5,082 bases of DNA, taken from IMG/VR virus record IMGVR_UViG_2579778652_000011; one strand, 5' to 3'. Below, piece by piece: positions 1-5,082 of the stretch. The position numbers were made by a program, and so were the translations under genes. The stretch comes from a virus (Duplodnaviria > Heunggongvirae > Uroviricota > Caudoviricetes). Under the pieces are notes generated by a model. That model made no database searches, was not told where the DNA came from, and saw only the letters and a program-made list of their open reading frames with translations. Within the stretch, counting starts at the first letter, position 1. Each line of letters starts with the position of its first letter.

Positions 1-159
1 CTCAGTAATTGCCGCGTTCGCCAGCTTCAGTTCTCTGGCATTTTTGTCGCGCTGTTCTTTGTAGGCGATGGCGTTATCACGGTAATGATTAACACCCCAT
101 GACAGGCAGACGACGATGCAGATAACCAGAGCGGAGATAATCGCGGTTACTCTGCTCAT
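1..159 (-). CDS. Rz: Spanin inner-membrane subunit Rz, N-terminal 53 codons only (continues beyond window start)
   Basis: Minus-strand translation from ATG at 159-157 gives [53 protein letters not shown], matching the lambda Rz N-terminus as I recall it. Its ATG overlaps the R stop as ATGA. Frame is open to position 1. Confidence 0.9.
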
Positions 160-632
160 ACCTCAATCTCTCTGACCGTTCCGCCAGCTTCTTTGAATTT
201 TGCAATCAGACTGTCAGCCTTATGCTCGAACTGACCATAACCAGCGCCCGGCAGTGAAGCCCATATATTGCTGCAACGGTCGATAGCCTGACGGATATCA
301 CCGCGATCAATCATCGGCAAAGCGCCACGCTCTTTAATCTGCTGCAGCGCTACAGCATCCTGACTTTCTGGAGAAAAATCTTTCAGGCCAAGTTGCTTGC
401 GGTAGGCATCCCACCAGCGTGAAAGAAGCTGGTAACGTCCAGCGGCTGTTGATTTGAGTTTCGGATTTAGCGTGACAAGTTTGCGGGGGTGATCGGAGTA
501 ATCAGTGAACAGTTCGCCACCGACAATAACATCATAACCGTGATTTCTGGTTTTCTGCCGTCCGTTATCTGTTCCTTCTGACCATGCCACCATATCAAGG
601 AAAGCTTTACGCTGGGAATTAAGTGTCTGCAT
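156..632 (-). CDS. R: Endolysin R, lambda-type lytic transglycosylase, 158 aa
   Basis: Provided ORF translation matches lambda R along its whole length as recalled ([55 protein letters not shown]). AAGGAG Shine-Dalgarno 6 nt upstream of the ATG at 632. Sits between holin and Rz. Confidence 0.95.
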
Positions 633-635
633 TAA

Positions 636-977
636 TTACTCCTTATGGGCACCGAACTTGTTACCGATGACCCTCATTGCCGCACCACGAATAGCATCAA
701 CACCAATCAGCCCCACCCCACCACCAATGGCAACAGAAAGTGATTTAGGCCATCCGACATACTCAAGCGCGGATGCAAAGGTCAGCGTCAGAGCACCACA
801 AAGCAGAATCTCAAGCGTTTTTCGTTTCCAGCCGCCGCCACCGCCAAAATAGGCAATGCGCAAACCAGCCATAATAATTGACATAACCACTGCACCCAGC
901 GGCGTATCTCCACGCCACCAACTTTGTAAGAGTTCCAGTAAGTCAGGCCAGGAATGAGGGGCATTGTGCATTTTCAT
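636..977 (-). CDS. Holin, class I-like with three predicted TM segments, not a lambda S homolog; probable dual start (Met at 977 and Met at 971)
   Basis: ORF immediately upstream of R. Three hydrophobic stretches (LGAVVMSIIMAGLRIAYF, TLEILLCGALTLTFASALEYVGW, SLSVAIGGGVGLIGVDAIRGAAM) and a short charged C-terminus. GGAGGTGAGG Shine-Dalgarno followed by CTT ATG AAA ATG gives an M-K-M motif like lambda S107/S105. The annotated GTG at 986 lies inside the Shine-Dalgarno, so it is unlikely to be the start. Confidence 0.7.
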   Translation of the reverse strand: MKMHNAPHSWPDLLELLQSWWRGDTPLGAVVMSIIMAGLRIAYFGGGGGWKRKTLEILLCGALTLTFASALEYVGWPKSLSVAIGGGVGLIGVDAIRGAAMRVIGNKFGAHKE

Positions 978-1075
978 AAGCCTCACCTCCGAGAGTTCGG
1001 ATGGTGCTAAGTGTAAGATTCAGGCTCTCAGGCTTGCTAACAAGAAGTCGAGGATGTTTCCGGAGCCTAACAACG

Positions 1076-1099
1076 AAAAAGCCCCGGGACATGCCGGGG
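1076..1099 (-). terminator. Intrinsic terminator-like hairpin downstream of the moron and upstream of the holin
   Basis: GC-only 6-bp stem (CCCCGG 1082-1087 pairs with CCGGGG 1094-1099) with a 6-nt loop. On the minus strand it is followed by C then TTTTT (plus-strand AAAAA at 1076-1080). Confidence 0.5.
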
Positions 1100-1194
1100 T
1101 CAGATGGAGTGCCAGATTAAGCTTCTGGCGGTATATACTCGTGTTTGATATCGTTAAATCGCCAAAAGTAACAATTCAAACAAAGAGGATTTTT

Positions 1195-1356
1195 ATGTCT
1201 GAAAAAAACAAGCCACAAGATGAAAATAAACCTCAGCAACCCGTGGCACCAAAACCAACTCCAACACAAAGTACTACAGACTTTGCTACACGTCGTGTTT
1301 TTGTTGGAGATTCTGCCGACTCAGTCATTGAACATATAAAAAAACAGCCGAGATAA
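1195..1356 (+). CDS. Candidate small protein, 53 aa, hydrophilic and Pro/Lys/Gln-rich, convergent with and overlapping the 3' end of the membrane-protein gene
   Basis: ATG at 1195 preceded by AAGAGGA Shine-Dalgarno with 5-nt spacing. Translation MSEKNKPQDENKPQQPVAPKPTPTQSTTDFATRRVFVGDSADSVIEHIKKQPR. Overlaps the minus-strand gene by 32 nt. No homolog recognised, and low-complexity composition makes a chance ORF possible. Confidence 0.3.
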   Translation: MSEKNKPQDENKPQQPVAPKPTPTQSTTDFATRRVFVGDSADSVIEHIKKQPR

Positions 1357-1894
1357 ACATCGCCGCTACCGGAGCAAGGATGGTATACATCCTTGCTTTA
1401 TCGAGACTCGTGCGGATTTTCTCATTTTCCAACAGTAACTCTCTTGCTGTATCACTCAAGTCAACAAGGCGATACCTTCGTATAAGCGGCAATAACTTAT
1501 CAGGTCCTAAATATCCTGCATCAGCGAATATTTTAAAGCTCGAGGGCTCCATATCCTTATATTTTTCATGATATAGATGATCAGGAGGGGCATTGATCAG
1601 GCCCCTAACCTTCACAGATAAACCAGTACATACCAAGTAAATGGCGCACCATGTCCATAGTAATGTAAATGTGGTAATTCCGGCGGTGAGAAAATCGAAA
1701 TTAGTTTTCTGTGTCAGCAATAAAAAAGATGAACCAATTCCAACAATCTGAATGTTCAGAAGTTTGTATCCATTCTCAACATTGGTTTTGTTAGAAAGAT
1801 GAATCTCTCGTATCGTCTCTTCCCCTTGTTTTTCAAGATAATCGACGAGCTCATCATCTACTCCTAAAAAATAATCTTTAGGTAGTTCTCTCAT
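1325..1894 (-). CDS. Uncharacterised membrane protein, 189 aa, moron cargo between Q and the lysis cassette
   Basis: Strong GGAGGTGAG Shine-Dalgarno directly upstream of the ATG at 1894. Predicted soluble N-terminus of about 55 aa, two adjacent TM helices (LLNIQIVGIGSSFLLLT, FLTAGITTFTLLWTWCAIYLVCTGL), a charged helical segment of about 60 aa, and a C-terminal hydrophobic helix (MYTILAPVAAMFISAVFLYV). Markedly more AT-rich than the flanking phage genes. No family recognised. Confidence 0.7.
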   Translation of the reverse strand: MRELPKDYFLGVDDELVDYLEKQGEETIREIHLSNKTNVENGYKLLNIQIVGIGSSFLLLTQKTNFDFLTAGITTFTLLWTWCAIYLVCTGLSVKVRGLINAPPDHLYHEKYKDMEPSSFKIFADAGYLGPDKLLPLIRRYRLVDLSDTARELLLENEKIRTSLDKARMYTILAPVAAMFISAVFLYVQ

Positions 1895-1922
1895 CTCACC
1901 TCCACATCCTGTACTGAAAACA

Positions 1923-1931
1923 ATTTTACCA
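1923..1931 (-). promoter_or_regulatory. Candidate extended -10 element (TGgTAAAAT) for the moron gene's own promoter
   Basis: Minus-strand sequence TGGTAAAAT lies about 30 nt upstream of the ATG at 1894 and fits the TGn-TATAAT pattern. No good -35 is present. By sequence only. Confidence 0.25.
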
Positions 1932-2001
1932 GAATGTCTCGATTCTAGGTATTCCGCCAGGAATCGCGCTCCAGAAATGAAACATCAGGTTCGCCAGTAC
2001 C

Positions 2002-2032
2002 AGAAACAACAAAACCCGCTCAATGGCGGGTT
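2002..2032 (-). terminator. tR'-like intrinsic terminator about 85 nt downstream of the Q stop
   Basis: Perfect 7-bp stem (AACCCGC 2013-2019 pairs with GCGGGTT 2026-2032) with a 6-nt loop. On the minus strand it is followed by TTGTTGTTTCT. Position after Q is analogous to lambda tR'. Confidence 0.55.
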
Positions 2033-2115
2033 CTGGTAAAGTTCATGCGCTTGGTTCGCCTCGCGATACAGCTTTGCGAAGCATACCGGAATTGAAGCAG
2101 TTTATGCGTAAAAAA

Positions 2116-2658
2116 TCAAGCTATTTTTTGAGCAAATGATTCTCGCATGGGAATATATAGGGCATACTCAGCAACAGCCAACCAATTAGCAATTCGCTTT
2201 TCGCATGTGCTAAAACACCACTCAGGATGTGCATCATTTAGCAATTCAGCCATTTTGCGCTTAGTCATCCCCCGTCCTTCATACCGTTGCCGGAGGACAC
2301 TAATCAATCCAGGATGCTCTGCCAGCACCTCACTTATGACTCTATCAATACATAACGCCTCTGCATCAGTACAATGCGCCAGCCAGGTCTTTTGCTTGCC
2401 ATTGATCATCTCTCGCAAAAACGCTTCCAGCTCAGGTTTCTCTATTCCCGCTTTTTTCATCCTGCGCAGGGCTTCATTGACGGCTGTTTTCGTCAATTTT
2501 TTGGATGCCAGCAACTGGTTAAACATATTTCCCGTCTTACCGCCGCCAATATACGACCAGCGCCCCCACATGCGCAGTTTTCCCTGAATCCAGACACTTT
2601 CCAGCGTGGTGAGACGAAGGTGTTCCCCGCTTTTGCCTGTATTTGTTGGGTAAATCAT
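2116..2658 (-). CDS. Late-gene antiterminator Q, Q82/QuuD-like family, 180 aa
   Basis: Sits immediately upstream of the terminator and lysis genes, as in lambdoid phages. Motif pattern (LRMWGRWS, paired Cys/His-containing segments) resembles my recollection of E. coli QuuD and phage 82 Q. Start chosen at ATG 2658, which has a GGAGAAAGGAAGG Shine-Dalgarno and overlaps the upstream stop as ATGA. The longer annotated ORF to 2778 overlaps the upstream gene. Confidence 0.6.
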   Translation of the reverse strand: MIYPTNTGKSGEHLRLTTLESVWIQGKLRMWGRWSYIGGGKTGNMFNQLLASKKLTKTAVNEALRRMKKAGIEKPELEAFLREMINGKQKTWLAHCTDAEALCIDRVISEVLAEHPGLISVLRQRYEGRGMTKRKMAELLNDAHPEWCFSTCEKRIANWLAVAEYALYIPMRESFAQKIA

Positions 2659-2945
2659 AAATAACCTTCCTTTCTCCAGATTTCTTGTGTGCGAAAAACA
2701 CCTTCTGCATGCATCAGGCGTAATTCTTCTTTGGTGTAATCGCTGGTTTTTACCCGCCCGTCGATTAAATCGTGGCATGAGCTACAGGCAATCGCTGCCT
2801 GCATATCGTGTGGTTTTGTCGCTGTTCCGCACGTCCCCGCCAGCCTGTAATGCGCCAGCACAGAGGTTTCGGGATTGTGATTGCAGTAGCCAGGGATTCT
2901 GATCTGGCACATCTGGCCTTTAGCCGCTTTACGTAAATTCACCAT
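2655..2945 (-). CDS. ybcO: YbcO-like DUF1364 protein (Cys/His metal-binding putative nuclease of the lambdoid nin region), 96 aa
   Basis: Translation (LRKAAKGQMCQIRIPGYCNHNPETSVLAHYRLAGTCGTATKP...IACSSCHDLIDG) matches recalled E. coli DLP12 YbcO in length and conserved Cys/His pattern. Start overlaps the upstream stop as TAATG. Confidence 0.75.
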   Translation of the reverse strand: MVNLRKAAKGQMCQIRIPGYCNHNPETSVLAHYRLAGTCGTATKPHDMQAAIACSSCHDLIDGRVKTSDYTKEELRLMHAEGVFRTQEIWRKEGYL

Positions 2946-3544
2946 TACGCAAACTCCAGTAGTTGTGCGGCCACATTTTCAACTTCCTCCTGAGAGGAGA
3001 ATTTACGGAACAGAATCCAGTTCCACAGCACATTCAGAACAGATTTATAAACCTGCTGAAACTCGGTTTCGTCCATATTCGCAAACGCGATGGATTTCGC
3101 CCTGCGCCCACGGCTACCGTCCGGATAAATATGCTCGGTGTAAAATCCGGCCTGAATGGTTACCCACTCGCGGAAAGCCTCAAACGACTTTAGCAATGCC
3201 GTATCCCGAGTTCTGCGTGTCGCAACTGTATTTAGATATTGCTCTGCGGCATCACTCAGGGCTGGTGTGTGTTCCCGACCAACTGATTCGCACAAGTAAT
3301 CCACGAAACCAGACAGCAGTTCTCGTTCGCGAGGTGTGATCGCCCCACCGACCGGAGTCCAGTAATCGAATCCCAGTTGCAGGAGTTTGAAAAAACGCTT
3401 GTGGAATGCGTAGTTACGCACACGCTTAAAGTCTGCGTGTATCCACTCACCTATTTTGATTTGATGCAGAAAATCGCAACTCTCCGGCGTCGCCGGGAGA
3501 AGTAAACCAGAAGAGGTTTGTTTGACCAGTTGTATATGCGCCAT
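2945..3544 (-). CDS. Phage nin-region protein, probably DUF1367 family, 199 aa
   Basis: Long ORF directly upstream of and translationally coupled to the YbcO-like gene, the usual DUF1367 to DUF1364 to Q arrangement in lambdoid prophages. Family assignment is from recollection, not a search. Confidence 0.6.
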   Translation of the reverse strand: MAHIQLVKQTSSGLLLPATPESCDFLHQIKIGEWIHADFKRVRNYAFHKRFFKLLQLGFDYWTPVGGAITPRERELLSGFVDYLCESVGREHTPALSDAAEQYLNTVATRRTRDTALLKSFEAFREWVTIQAGFYTEHIYPDGSRGRRAKSIAFANMDETEFQQVYKSVLNVLWNWILFRKFSSQEEVENVAAQLLEFA

Positions 3545-3602
3545 TTCTCAATCTCTCGATGGCGCAGCGCAGCAGATGCCAGTTGTTCAGGCTGACGAAT
3601 AA

Positions 3603-3630
3603 AGTATAAATAAACTGGCTATGGTGTAAA
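3603..3630 (-). promoter_or_regulatory. Candidate sigma70 promoter for the DUF1367/YbcO/Q operon
   Basis: On the minus strand, TTTACA (plus 3625-3630), a 16-nt spacer, then TATACT (plus 3603-3608), about 60 nt upstream of the ATG at 3544. By sequence only. Confidence 0.3.
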
Positions 3631-3824
3631 GCCCCACATAGCATGAACAAACACTACATATCAAATAGCTGGTACAAGGATAGAAATACGACATTTATTA
3701 TTAAAAACGATTAGATAAATTACATTTTAATGTTATGCAAAAGTTCTTTTTTATCATAACATTTCAATAAAAGCATTACAGATGCAATCATCCCGTCATC
3801 ATCAATTATTTAAGGTGGTTAAAC

Positions 3825-3911
3825 ATGGAAAATAACAAGTTCGCACATCTCGCTCCTTTTTTATCCGTAATCCTTTTCGCTTGTTGTTTTATATGGGCAT
3901 TATTTTTATAA
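3825..3911 (+). CDS. Candidate small hydrophobic protein, 28 aa, single predicted TM helix
   Basis: ATG at 3825 preceded by TAAGGTGG Shine-Dalgarno with 6-nt spacing. Translation MENNKFAHLAPFLSVILFACCFIWALFL. Lies in AT-rich intergenic DNA. Confidence 0.35.
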   Translation: MENNKFAHLAPFLSVILFACCFIWALFL

Positions 3912-3984
3912 AGTAGCCACATGATAAGTTGCTGGAATCATATTTCCCACTCAAGTCATTAACATTTGATAAGATATATCTAAA

Positions 3985-4045
3985 AGGACACCTTTACATT
4001 ATTTATGTGTATATAATTTATTTATATACACAGTAAAGGTATCCT
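3985..4045. repeat. Composite imperfect palindrome: perfect 10-bp inverted repeat TGTGTATATA / TATATACACA with 7-bp spacer, flanked by 13-bp arms AGGACACCTTTAC / GTAAAGGTATCCT (12/13)
   Basis: Read directly. Inner arms at 4006-4015 and 4023-4032, outer arms at 3985-3997 and 4033-4045. The left side carries an 8-nt insertion (ATTATTTA) between outer and inner arms. Confidence 0.6.
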
Positions 4046-4302
4046 GGGAAAATATTTATCGTTAAAAAATACATCATAAATAATTAAGCTGAAATTTCAG
4101 AACACAACTAATACACACAATAAGGTTCAGTAACAATAATCTATGTGGACTACATCGAGATTTTTTGATTAAACTTTAATAACTTATTCCTAACACACAG
4201 AATGCATAAACTAAAAGTAAAACAAATAGTTATACGAAAAACAACCATATTTATTATATCTTCTCCTCTAATCAACATATCAATTATGTGTTTCATAACA
4301 GC

Positions 4303-4350
4303 TTGACATAACCCTCAAAAACACGCATTTATAATGCATGTTTTTGAGGG
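4303..4350 (+). promoter_or_regulatory. yeaR-like promoter region with an NsrR-like operator palindrome centred on the -10
   Basis: Perfect TTGACA (4303-4308) and TATAAT (4330-4335) separated by 21 bp. 17-bp arms CCCTCAAAAACACGCAT / ATGCATGTTTTTGAGGG (16/17) centred at 4331. The core AACACGCATTT-A-TAATGCATGTT (4320-4342) matches about 18 of 22 positions of the NsrR 11-1-11 consensus as I recall it (AAGATGCATTT n AAATACATCTT). Confidence 0.5.
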
Positions 4351-4357
4351 GGTGGTT

Positions 4358-4696
4358 ATGACACACAAGAGAATTCCTAAAGATTGGGTAATCAAACGCT
4401 CAACTCCGTTCTTCACAAAAGAGAACGTACCTTCAGCGTTATTAACACATCATAATACAGCAGCAGGTGTTTTTGGGCAGTTGTGCGTAATGGAAGGCAC
4501 TGTAACATATTATGGTTTTACTGATGAGAATGCTACTGAACCGGAGATAAAAGTAGTCATTAATGCTGGCGCTTTTGCAACAAGCCCACCACAATACTGG
4601 CACCGTGTTGAACTAAGCGATGATGCTCAGTTTAATATTAACTTTTGGGTCGCTCCAGACTTCTCGGGCGAAAAAGTCTATAGCACCAAAAAATAG
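4358..4696 (+). CDS. yeaR: YeaR-like DUF1971 protein, 112 aa
   Basis: Size and motifs (RSTPFF, FNINFWVAP) resemble my recollection of E. coli YeaR. The NsrR-like operator upstream fits known NsrR/NarL regulation of yeaR. Start taken at ATG 4358 after a GAGGGGGTGG Shine-Dalgarno, because the annotated ATG at 4334 lies inside the -10 hexamer. Confidence 0.6.
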   Translation: MTHKRIPKDWVIKRSTPFFTKENVPSALLTHHNTAAGVFGQLCVMEGTVTYYGFTDENATEPEIKVVINAGAFATSPPQYWHRVELSDDAQFNINFWVAPDFSGEKVYSTKK

Positions 4697-4725
4697 ATGA
4701 TCATATTAAAAATGCTTTAACAGTC

Positions 4726-4762: not shown

Positions 4763-4914
4763 GTAAATATATTGGTTCTACATTGACAGGAGACTTCAAC
4801 CATAAGAAGTAATCTGAATACTTGAGCAATAAATTTACTTAAGATTAATGAGCGCACCTTGCCGGACAAAGATAAACCAAGGTAACACCTTTTTTCTAGC
4901 CAGTATGTAATCAA

Positions 4915-5082
4915 TCAGAAAGCCGCTCCATAAGAACAACAGCAAGACAATAAATTGCCATTACAGCCGCAATAGCCAGCGCACATTTGAGAACCAGCAC
5001 GACAACCCCCTGTATTAGACGCACACCAGTCCTGATAAATATGTAGACTGGCCCCCTGAATCTCCAGACAACCAATATCACT
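4915..5082 (-). CDS. Possible 3' end of a gene entering from beyond the window (55 open codons, Cys-rich C-terminus)
   Basis: Minus-strand frame is open from 5082 to a TGA at 4917-4915. Translation ends ...QDWCASNTGGCRAGSQMCAGYCGCNGNLLSCCCSYGAAF. No start or Shine-Dalgarno is visible in the window, and an open frame of this length can occur by chance. Confidence 0.15.
   Translation of the reverse strand, partial: SDIGCLEIQGASLHIYQDWCASNTGGCRAGSQMCAGYCGCNGNLLSCCCSYGAAF

Follow-up and report, generated by a model that had tools for sequence, protein, structure and literature searches.

What does a membrane protein of no recognised family do between the antiterminator gene Q and the holin gene of a lambdoid prophage? 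This question is raised by a stretch of viral DNA of 5,082 nucleotides (IMG/VR record IMGVR_UViG_2579778652_000011, referred to below as the window, that is, the stretch at its full length), in which a minus-strand open reading frame (ORF) at 1325-1894, here called orf189, encodes a protein of 189 amino acids. A sequence-only reading of the window had described orf189 as a single cargo gene and had proposed that its product acts in superinfection exclusion, in abortive infection or as a pore-forming effector. Here, we report that the unit is made of two genes and not one. Together with a small convergent gene, orf53, orf189 forms a self-contained, horizontally exchanged cargo cassette (a moron) that occupies positions ~1173-1999, in the slot between the Q and holin genes of a Rac-like lambdoid prophage. 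We propose that the pair may be a toxin/antitoxin-like, membrane-acting exclusion or abortive-infection module, a reading to which we give a probability of about 0.4.

The cargo unit is a pair of convergent genes

The gene orf53 had been overlooked when orf189 was considered on its own. It converges on orf189 and overlaps its 3' end by 32 nucleotides, so that the mRNAs of the two genes are complementary at their 3' ends. In most of the ~100 loci fetched, tblastn detected orf53 directly downstream of the orf189 homologue and in convergent orientation, with identities down to 38%. We aligned 30 divergent enterobacterial loci with homologues to compare orf53 together with the terminators, the -10 region and the leader discussed below. 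In all 30, orf53 is intact, its ATG aligns and its product has 47-64 amino acids; the overlap with orf189 is always 20-35 nucleotides. A purine-rich, GGAG-like block occupies the position of the orf53 Shine-Dalgarno sequence in the other aligned loci. Codon-position differences showed the pattern expected of coding sequences both among the orf189 homologues (27589/20336/50268 for positions 1/2/3) and for orf53 over the 30 loci (8745/6803/12495), and the orf189 frame is intact in every divergent locus compared.

The orf53 product is a disordered, hydrophilic protein of ~50 amino acids, rich in Pro, Lys and Gln, with a conserved motif DF-x3-R-x2-VGDSA and a basic tail. It belongs to PHROG 14506 (2.4e-31), a family without assigned function, and searches of Pfam, NCBIfam, PHROGs and PADLOC gave nothing beyond this assignment. 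RefSeq lists it as WP_240763414.1, and a 71-amino-acid form appears in other records. This longer form was rejected, as its upstream frame is broken in several loci and the ATG and ribosome-binding site of the shorter form align in 30 of 30.

The association of the two genes extends well beyond the enterobacterial Q-to-holin position. The pair is kept in Pantoea prophages despite an unrelated Q family (PF06530), in Morganella, where the partner ORF was found by inspection, and in Pasteurellaceae prophages, where it is located in an early region. In another lambdoid prophage, which encodes the homologue P0129, the pair lies near repressor and Bro-N genes instead of between Q and the holin gene S. 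The very distant relative P0189 has a partner of 47 amino acids, and in Burkholderia and Ralstonia we found an uncalled, convergent, Pro/Lys-rich partner ORF of 43 amino acids that overlaps the orf189 homologue by 52 nucleotides. Since the pairing survives these large evolutionary and positional jumps, we conclude that the functional unit is the pair. The two genes show the tight linkage and constant co-occurrence that serve as a criterion for toxin-antitoxin systems.

As a separate observation, the beta-proteobacterial partners (e.g. MSTSKNKAPAPRPNPQPIYRGPAKDGFNRAPQKGNQPAKPVKK) are very proline-rich and superficially resemble proline-rich antimicrobial peptides.

Cassette boundaries and the cargo slot

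The limits of the cassette are defined by a related E. coli prophage, L109, whose flanks are essentially identical to positions 960-1172 and 2000-2110 of the window, the right terminator included, and enclose a different convergent pair encoding 93 (plus strand) and 77 (minus strand) amino acids at L109 positions 2134-2628. The exchanged segment thus corresponds to ~1173-1999. L109 also has an extra ORF6N gene inserted closer to Q. In other prophages that share the Q family, the slot holds tRNA genes together with genes for a TolA-like protein and an esterase. The presence of other cargo in related prophages, beside the same Q and holin genes, gives good support to the cargo slot of a lambdoid prophage that had been proposed from the sequence, and gene order and the Rac-like context agree with it.

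The moron layout that had been suggested for orf189 applies to the pair. Both genes are far more AT-rich than their surroundings, with a GC content of 0.389 for orf189 and 0.401 for orf53 as compared with 0.47-0.51 in the flanks (Q 0.471, endolysin 0.493, holin 0.513). In related phages the cassette is missing from between these neighbours or has given way to other genes, as in L109 and in prophages where different cargo lies beside the same Q family. In these respects it resembles classical morons and cargo between Q and S (stx, lambda bor and lom, nmpC/lc), which combine their own promoter and terminator, a deviant composition and presence or absence between syntenic genes. The predicted terminators on both sides and the predicted -10 element would correspond to the promoter and terminator of such morons. 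It differs from them in that the cargo is a convergent gene pair and in that one flank is a conserved leader common to unrelated cargo.

The two hairpin terminators that bracket orf189 had already been noted. Their number alone is not above chance, with two terminator-like hairpins found in 1.3 kb against 1.1 +/- 1.1 in shuffled sequences. However, they recur at the same positions. Most of the 30 loci have a terminator-like hairpin upstream of the homologue, with differing stem sequences, and a GC-rich hairpin followed by an A/T run, also variable in sequence, occupies the position of the second terminator in most of them.

The strong Shine-Dalgarno sequence attributed to orf189 is present (GGAGG, 4 nucleotides before the ATG). 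The possible extended -10 element stood in part: the hexamer TAAAAT is conserved, but the TG is lineage-specific, and most loci have AGGTAAAAT. In most of the 30 aligned loci a motif (C/T)(A/T)GGTAAAAT is located ~25-35 nucleotides 5' of the start codon. A consensus promoter scan passed over this element because it has no good -35 box. A promoter upstream of orf189 is predicted from this motif.

The segment 2000-2110, read on the minus strand, is kept with DUF1133-type Q genes in three prophages, L109 among them, even where the cargo differs. Within it, TATGCTTCGCAAAGCTGTATC precedes the terminator. By analogy with lambda, the segment is a candidate late promoter and Q-loading region that would produce a short, tR'-terminated RNA of ~70 nucleotides.

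orf189 encodes a predicted three-helix membrane protein of a small, phage-borne family

Three hydrophobic segments were found in Kyte-Doolittle windows, at residues ~45-62, 68-94 and 168-189 (transmembrane (TM) segments TM1, TM2 and TM3), in accordance with the number of TM helices expected. Positive charges are concentrated in residues 95-168. By the positive-inside rule, this points to an N-in/C-out topology with both soluble parts in the cytoplasm. An AlphaFold2 model built with the family alignment is all-helical and confident (pLDDT 83, pTM 0.65). It has two very long helices, 14-62 and 134-188, each running from a cytoplasmic part into a TM segment, and a further TM helix at 68-92. The N-terminus and the segment 95-167 are predicted to form a cytoplasmic helical bundle below the membrane. 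Hydropathy, charge distribution and the model all agree with the architecture read from the sequence, that is, a cytoplasmic N-terminus, a TM hairpin, a charged helical segment and a C-terminal TM helix.

The protein, 'hypothetical protein' WP_001208722.1 in RefSeq, matches PHROG 11870 from end to end (6e-108), a family without assigned function. It has no match in Pfam, NCBIfam or PADLOC. As had been proposed, it resembles no lysis, Q or nin family in these libraries or in PHROGs, and neither a transporter or enzyme signature nor a match to any superinfection-exclusion (Sie) family was found in the libraries searched. A profile search against Protein Data Bank sequences gave nothing meaningful (best match GpsB, E = 0.07), and fold searches with the model returned only generic long-helix matches, none of them significant. 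No description of the family was found in literature searches.

The family is small. Among 5.8 billion proteins, there were 104 matches to orf189, nearly all of 189 amino acids, from Enterobacterales, with identities down to ~40%. Homologues of about this length occur in Escherichia, Klebsiella, Citrobacter, Serratia, Yersinia, Morganella, Providencia, Proteus, Pantoea and Salmonella. When the profile was searched against 1.84 billion cluster representatives, only 103 proteins were retrieved at E <= 1e-3, mostly of 160-200 amino acids. TM1, KLLSILIVGIGSSFLLLTQ (VGIGSSF), is the most conserved part of the family, and an acidic N-terminal motif (DYFLDADDxLVDFLEKQGEE), P104-x2-LY, RRYRL and P175 in TM3 are also conserved.

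Every sufficiently long genomic context of the family members looked up, in gamma- and beta-proteobacteria, is phage-like, so that among the contexts examined the family is phage-borne. In most enterobacterial loci the homologue directly precedes the holin gene; in other phages, homologues lie near the repressor gene, in an early region or close to tail genes.

A possible link to Pycsar and CBASS membrane effectors

When 32 diverse family members were scanned against PADLOC, the top family was PycTM, the TM effector of Pycsar, a system in which a pyrimidine cyclase serves resistance to phages. The signal is strongest for P0129, which matches the PycTM model PDLC02364 at 1.5e-8 (residues 17-182 on model positions 7-152 of 160) and the '2TM effector' model PDLC00700 of the cyclic oligonucleotide-based antiphage signalling system (CBASS) at 4e-5. 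Weak matches were obtained for P0127 with two PycTM models (PDLC02364/02363, 0.011 and 0.0073), for P0189 with the PycTM model PDLC02364 (0.046) and for P0114 with another CBASS 2TM effector model (PDLC00668, 0.0042). A family relative also matched SLATT_3 weakly (0.13). By sequence comparison, P0129 can be placed securely in the family. It matches the orf189 family profile over its full length (E = 7e-22) and P0099, which is 42% identical to orf189, at 2e-12, and it too has a convergent partner.

Like PycTM (PDLC02364/02363; PF18967), orf189 is a small helical membrane protein, in the range of ~160-190 amino acids, with short cytoplasmic helical parts. In contrast, orf189 itself is unmatched, and its family is phage-borne in the contexts examined, is paired with a convergent small ORF and has no pyrimidine cyclase (PycC) among the called neighbours. 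The CBASS 2TM and SLATT-type 2TM effectors share with it the paired TM helices and flanking helices, for which membrane disruption is presumed, but orf189 has three TM helices rather than two, and neither it nor its close relatives match these effectors significantly. A wider family alignment search recovered family members only, none annotated PF18967.

Among the called neighbours of the family members looked up, no nucleotide cyclase was met, PycC included, nor any CD-NTase/SMODS or other nucleotidyltransferase gene; two of the contigs, shorter than 2 kb, are little informative in this respect. From these comparisons, the chances that the family is truly homologous to the Pycsar/CBASS effectors seem to be about even. 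Homologous or not, it would work without their signalling enzyme.

Proposed mode of action and alternative explanations

In the module that we propose, orf189 would act as an effector that perturbs the membrane, similar in general kind to the Pycsar/CBASS TM effectors but cyclase-free. Its small partner would restrain it, as the orf53 protein and/or by way of the antisense transcript: orf189 transcripts ending at the terminator between the cassette and the holin gene would be fully complementary to orf53 mRNA, and strong Q-dependent late transcription would meet orf53 transcription head-on. orf189 would be released when another phage infects the cell or when the partner is lost, and the resulting damage to the membrane would abort or exclude the infection. 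The exclusion, abortive-infection or pore-forming function originally put forward for orf189 stays conjectural, with the weak and indirect link of one family member to the Pycsar/CBASS effectors as its only new support.

Two known systems have a comparable organization. Lambda RexA/RexB is also a two-gene module expressed from a prophage, and its membrane component is thought to depolarise the cell on superinfection. However, there is no sequence relation, RexB has four TM helices, the genome position is different, and RexA, a large sensor, shares an operon with RexB, whereas the partner here is a 50-amino-acid peptide encoded antisense. In type I toxin-antitoxin loci, the 3' end of a membrane-protein gene is likewise overlapped by a convergent transcript, but the membrane protein here is large (189 amino acids) and the antisense transcript encodes a conserved protein.

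Several observations weigh against this proposal. The match of P0129 to the Pfam PycTM family (PF18967) has E = 0.016 and 16 bits, below the 27.2-bit cut-off, and covers a single TM helix; the PycTM link is thus suggestive only. All close relatives of orf189 tested gave, like orf189 itself, nothing in PADLOC, Pfam or NCBIfam, and matches of TM-rich proteins are prone to spurious, composition-driven similarity. The partner of P0127, although convergent and overlapping, is acidic and not basic. Moreover, orf53 could equally be an activator or a sensor, or be functionally unrelated to orf189. Finally, other cargo of the slot tested against PADLOC (DUF2441 proteins, a Zn-ribbon protein and uncharacterised proteins) included no known defence gene. 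For this last reason, the slot should not be called a defence hotspot on present evidence.

The alternative that survives best is a non-lethal superinfection exclusion, in which orf189 would block the entry of incoming phage DNA at the inner membrane, as HK97 gp15, T4 Imm and P22 SieA do, with orf53 as regulator or cofactor. Injection blockers are typically small inner-membrane proteins encoded by prophages. orf189 resembles them in size and predicted location, has its own predicted promoter, would be insulated from late transcription and shows a phage-only distribution. No homology was detected to these proteins, to Rac SieB, another small inner-membrane protein of this type, or to any other Sie family, and none of HK97 gp15, T4 Imm, P22 SieA and Rac SieB is known to have a conserved convergent partner. 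A controlled effector fits better with an overlapping partner that is strictly conserved and with the weak similarity to PycTM/2TM, and Rac already encodes SieB. We consider this explanation unlikely.

The pair could also serve lysogenic conversion or host fitness without any relation to phages, for instance through an ion- or stress-related membrane function. Cargo between Q and S often consists of conversion genes such as those for Stx, porin genes are found there in DLP12 and PA-2, and the lack of known defence genes among the co-slot cargo tested would fit such a role. It is quite unlikely, given that no transporter or enzyme signature was found, that only phage contexts were met for the family in gamma- and beta-proteobacteria of very different lifestyles, and that the pairing with an antisense peptide would be left unexplained.

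orf189 is encoded on the same strand as the late operon, just ahead of the holin gene in most enterobacterial loci, and it has three TM helices, as class I holins do; this could indicate a late lytic accessory: read-through from PR' by Q-modified polymerase, ahead of the holin gene, would supply a protein that tunes lysis timing or the state of the membrane. Several facts make this role distinctly improbable. The same pair is found elsewhere in other phages, beside the repressor gene, in an early region or close to tail genes; the lambda-type lysis set of this phage is already complete and includes a dual-start holin; related phages with the same lysis genes lack the cassette; and the predicted N-in topology is unlike that of lambda S. 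A role of orf189 as the holin or antiholin itself was rejected, as there is no holin match and other phages carry the pair at a distance from their lysis genes. No antiholin is needed in any case, because the phage's own lambda-type holin has an MKM dual start of the S107/S105 type, which provides its own antiholin form.

Last, a counter-defence decoy, in which the phage-borne version of a host TM effector would assemble together with the host Pycsar/CBASS effectors and poison them, would agree with an effector-like architecture carried by a phage without a cyclase but is highly improbable, since the similarity to the effectors is marginal, a lysogen expressing it from its own promoter would gain little from disabling host immunity, and the conserved partner gene is not explained.

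A leader element shared with unrelated cargo

On its left side, the cassette is bounded by a second element that had escaped the sequence-only reading. The flank downstream of orf189 contains a near-invariant core of 27 nucleotides, TGATATCGTTAAATCGCCAAAAGTAAC, at 1146-1172. This leader core is more conserved than either coding sequence and remains near-invariant where the proteins are only ~50% identical. An exact-pattern scan of IMG/VR gave 106 stretches with the core. Among 69 distinct instances, 31 precede orf53-like genes and 35 precede other or no recognisable genes; in the remaining three the ORF call is disturbed and an orf189 homologue lies downstream. The core is found upstream of at least nine unrelated kinds of gene, including those for DUF2441 proteins, a 67-amino-acid Zn-ribbon protein and several uncharacterised proteins, and the genes other than orf53 that follow it often have a convergent partner of their own.

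A promoter scan found no sigma-70 consensus promoter in the leader, RNAalifold gave no consensus fold for it (-0.5 kcal/mol), an Rfam scan of the window found no family, and the sequence was not found in the literature. The element is a candidate promoter, operator, RNA leader or recombination linker. Between the second terminator and the core lies an inverted repeat (GCCAGA-TTAAGCT-TCTGGC) whose arms vary among instances by paired changes (GCCAGT/ACTGGC, CCAGAT/ATCTGG, AACCAT/ATGGTT), which suggests a conserved hairpin or a dyad binding site.

The cargo behind the same leader is often a convergent pair with adjacent or overlapping 3' ends, as observed in seven loci, L109 among them; examples are genes for 93 and 77 amino acids, or for a DUF2441 protein (~178 amino acids) and 74-84 amino acids. 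Convergent pairs may be the general format of the slot.

Genomic setting of the window

Library matches and gene order identify the window, read on the minus strand, as the part of a Rac-like lambdoid prophage that serves late control and lysis (Table 1). RefSeq places the start of the holin gene at 977, which gives the MKM dual start. Identical DNA is present in the Rac prophage of many E. coli strains, with trkG, ynaK, ydaY, stfR, sieB, kilR and recE as neighbours, and in several records of induced 'vB_EcoS' phages. The stretch 1000-2120 is covered to at least 80% in 223 of 5426 complete E. coli genomes (~4%).

Table 1. Features of the window, with their coordinates and supporting details
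Feature	Position	Strand	Details
orf189, predicted inner-membrane protein of 189 amino acids	1325-1894	-	ATG start, intact ORF
orf53, hydrophilic protein of 53 amino acids	1195-1356	+	Converges on orf189
Shine-Dalgarno sequence of orf189, GGAGG	1903-1899	-	From sequence; 4 nucleotides ahead of the ATG
Predicted orf189 promoter, TGgTAAAAT	TG 1931-1930; -10 TAAAAT 1928-1923	-	Direct reading of the sequence; ~30 nucleotides upstream of the start
Shine-Dalgarno sequence of orf53, AAGAGGA	1183-1189	+	From sequence
tR'-like intrinsic terminator, right cassette boundary	2003-2035 (stem 2035-2010, T-rich tail to ~2003)	-	10-bp stem, 6 GC pairs
Second intrinsic terminator, between cassette and holin gene	1076-1099 (stem 1099-1082, then CTTTTT)	-	Hairpin scan
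Leader/flank core (TTTGATATCGTTAAATCGCCAAAAGTAAC...), left cassette boundary	1144-1176	+	20-25 nucleotides 5' of the orf53 start
Inverted repeat GCCAGA-TTAAGCT-TCTGGC	1111-1129		From sequence; between terminator and leader core
DUF1367 gene	2945-3544		First in minus-strand order
YbcO/DUF1364 nuclease-like gene	2655-2945		Minus-strand order
Q antiterminator gene, DUF1133-type	2116-2658		Minus-strand order, ahead of orf189
Lambda-family holin gene	636-986	-	PF05106 at 2e-27, TIGR01594 at 5e-41
GH24 endolysin gene	156-632		Minus-strand order, after the holin gene
Rz gene			Minus-strand order, after the endolysin gene; only its beginning lies in the window

A second variable slot is located at 3545-4700, with an AT-rich part (GC 0.30) followed by a plus-strand DUF1971 gene at 4358-4696. 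At the matching position, strain AR_0369 has the anti-phage genes iteA/iteS, and strain Br_178_kylling has genes for a SIR2-like protein, an adenosine deaminase and an NTP pyrophosphatase just past it. At the edge of the window, an unannotated minus-strand ORF (4911-5081, 56 amino acids), without a Pfam match, has a strongly hydrophobic C-terminal half; a related prophage has a Hok/Gef gene in roughly this place.

Implications

We regard the pair as well worth taking into experiments, and not as a novelty already demonstrated. It is doubtful, from what we have, that it represents an undescribed kind of module, with a cyclase-independent, PycTM-like, three-TM effector controlled by a Pro/Lys-rich peptide encoded on the antisense strand and kept from Enterobacterales to Burkholderia phages, and with the 27-nucleotide leader marking a hitherto unrecognised exchange point that drives many different two-gene cassettes in the lambdoid late region. 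If orf189 and orf53 do form a membrane-acting exclusion module, they would be a compact, cyclase-free relative of the Pycsar/CBASS membrane effectors under a kind of control that is unusual, since the antisense partner that overlaps the 3' end of the effector gene codes for a protein itself. In that case the leader element would also be a simple sequence tag by which more uncharacterised cargo pairs could be collected from the slot between Q and the lysis genes of lambdoid prophages. The cassette is present in ~4% of complete E. coli genomes and in the prophages of many Enterobacterales.

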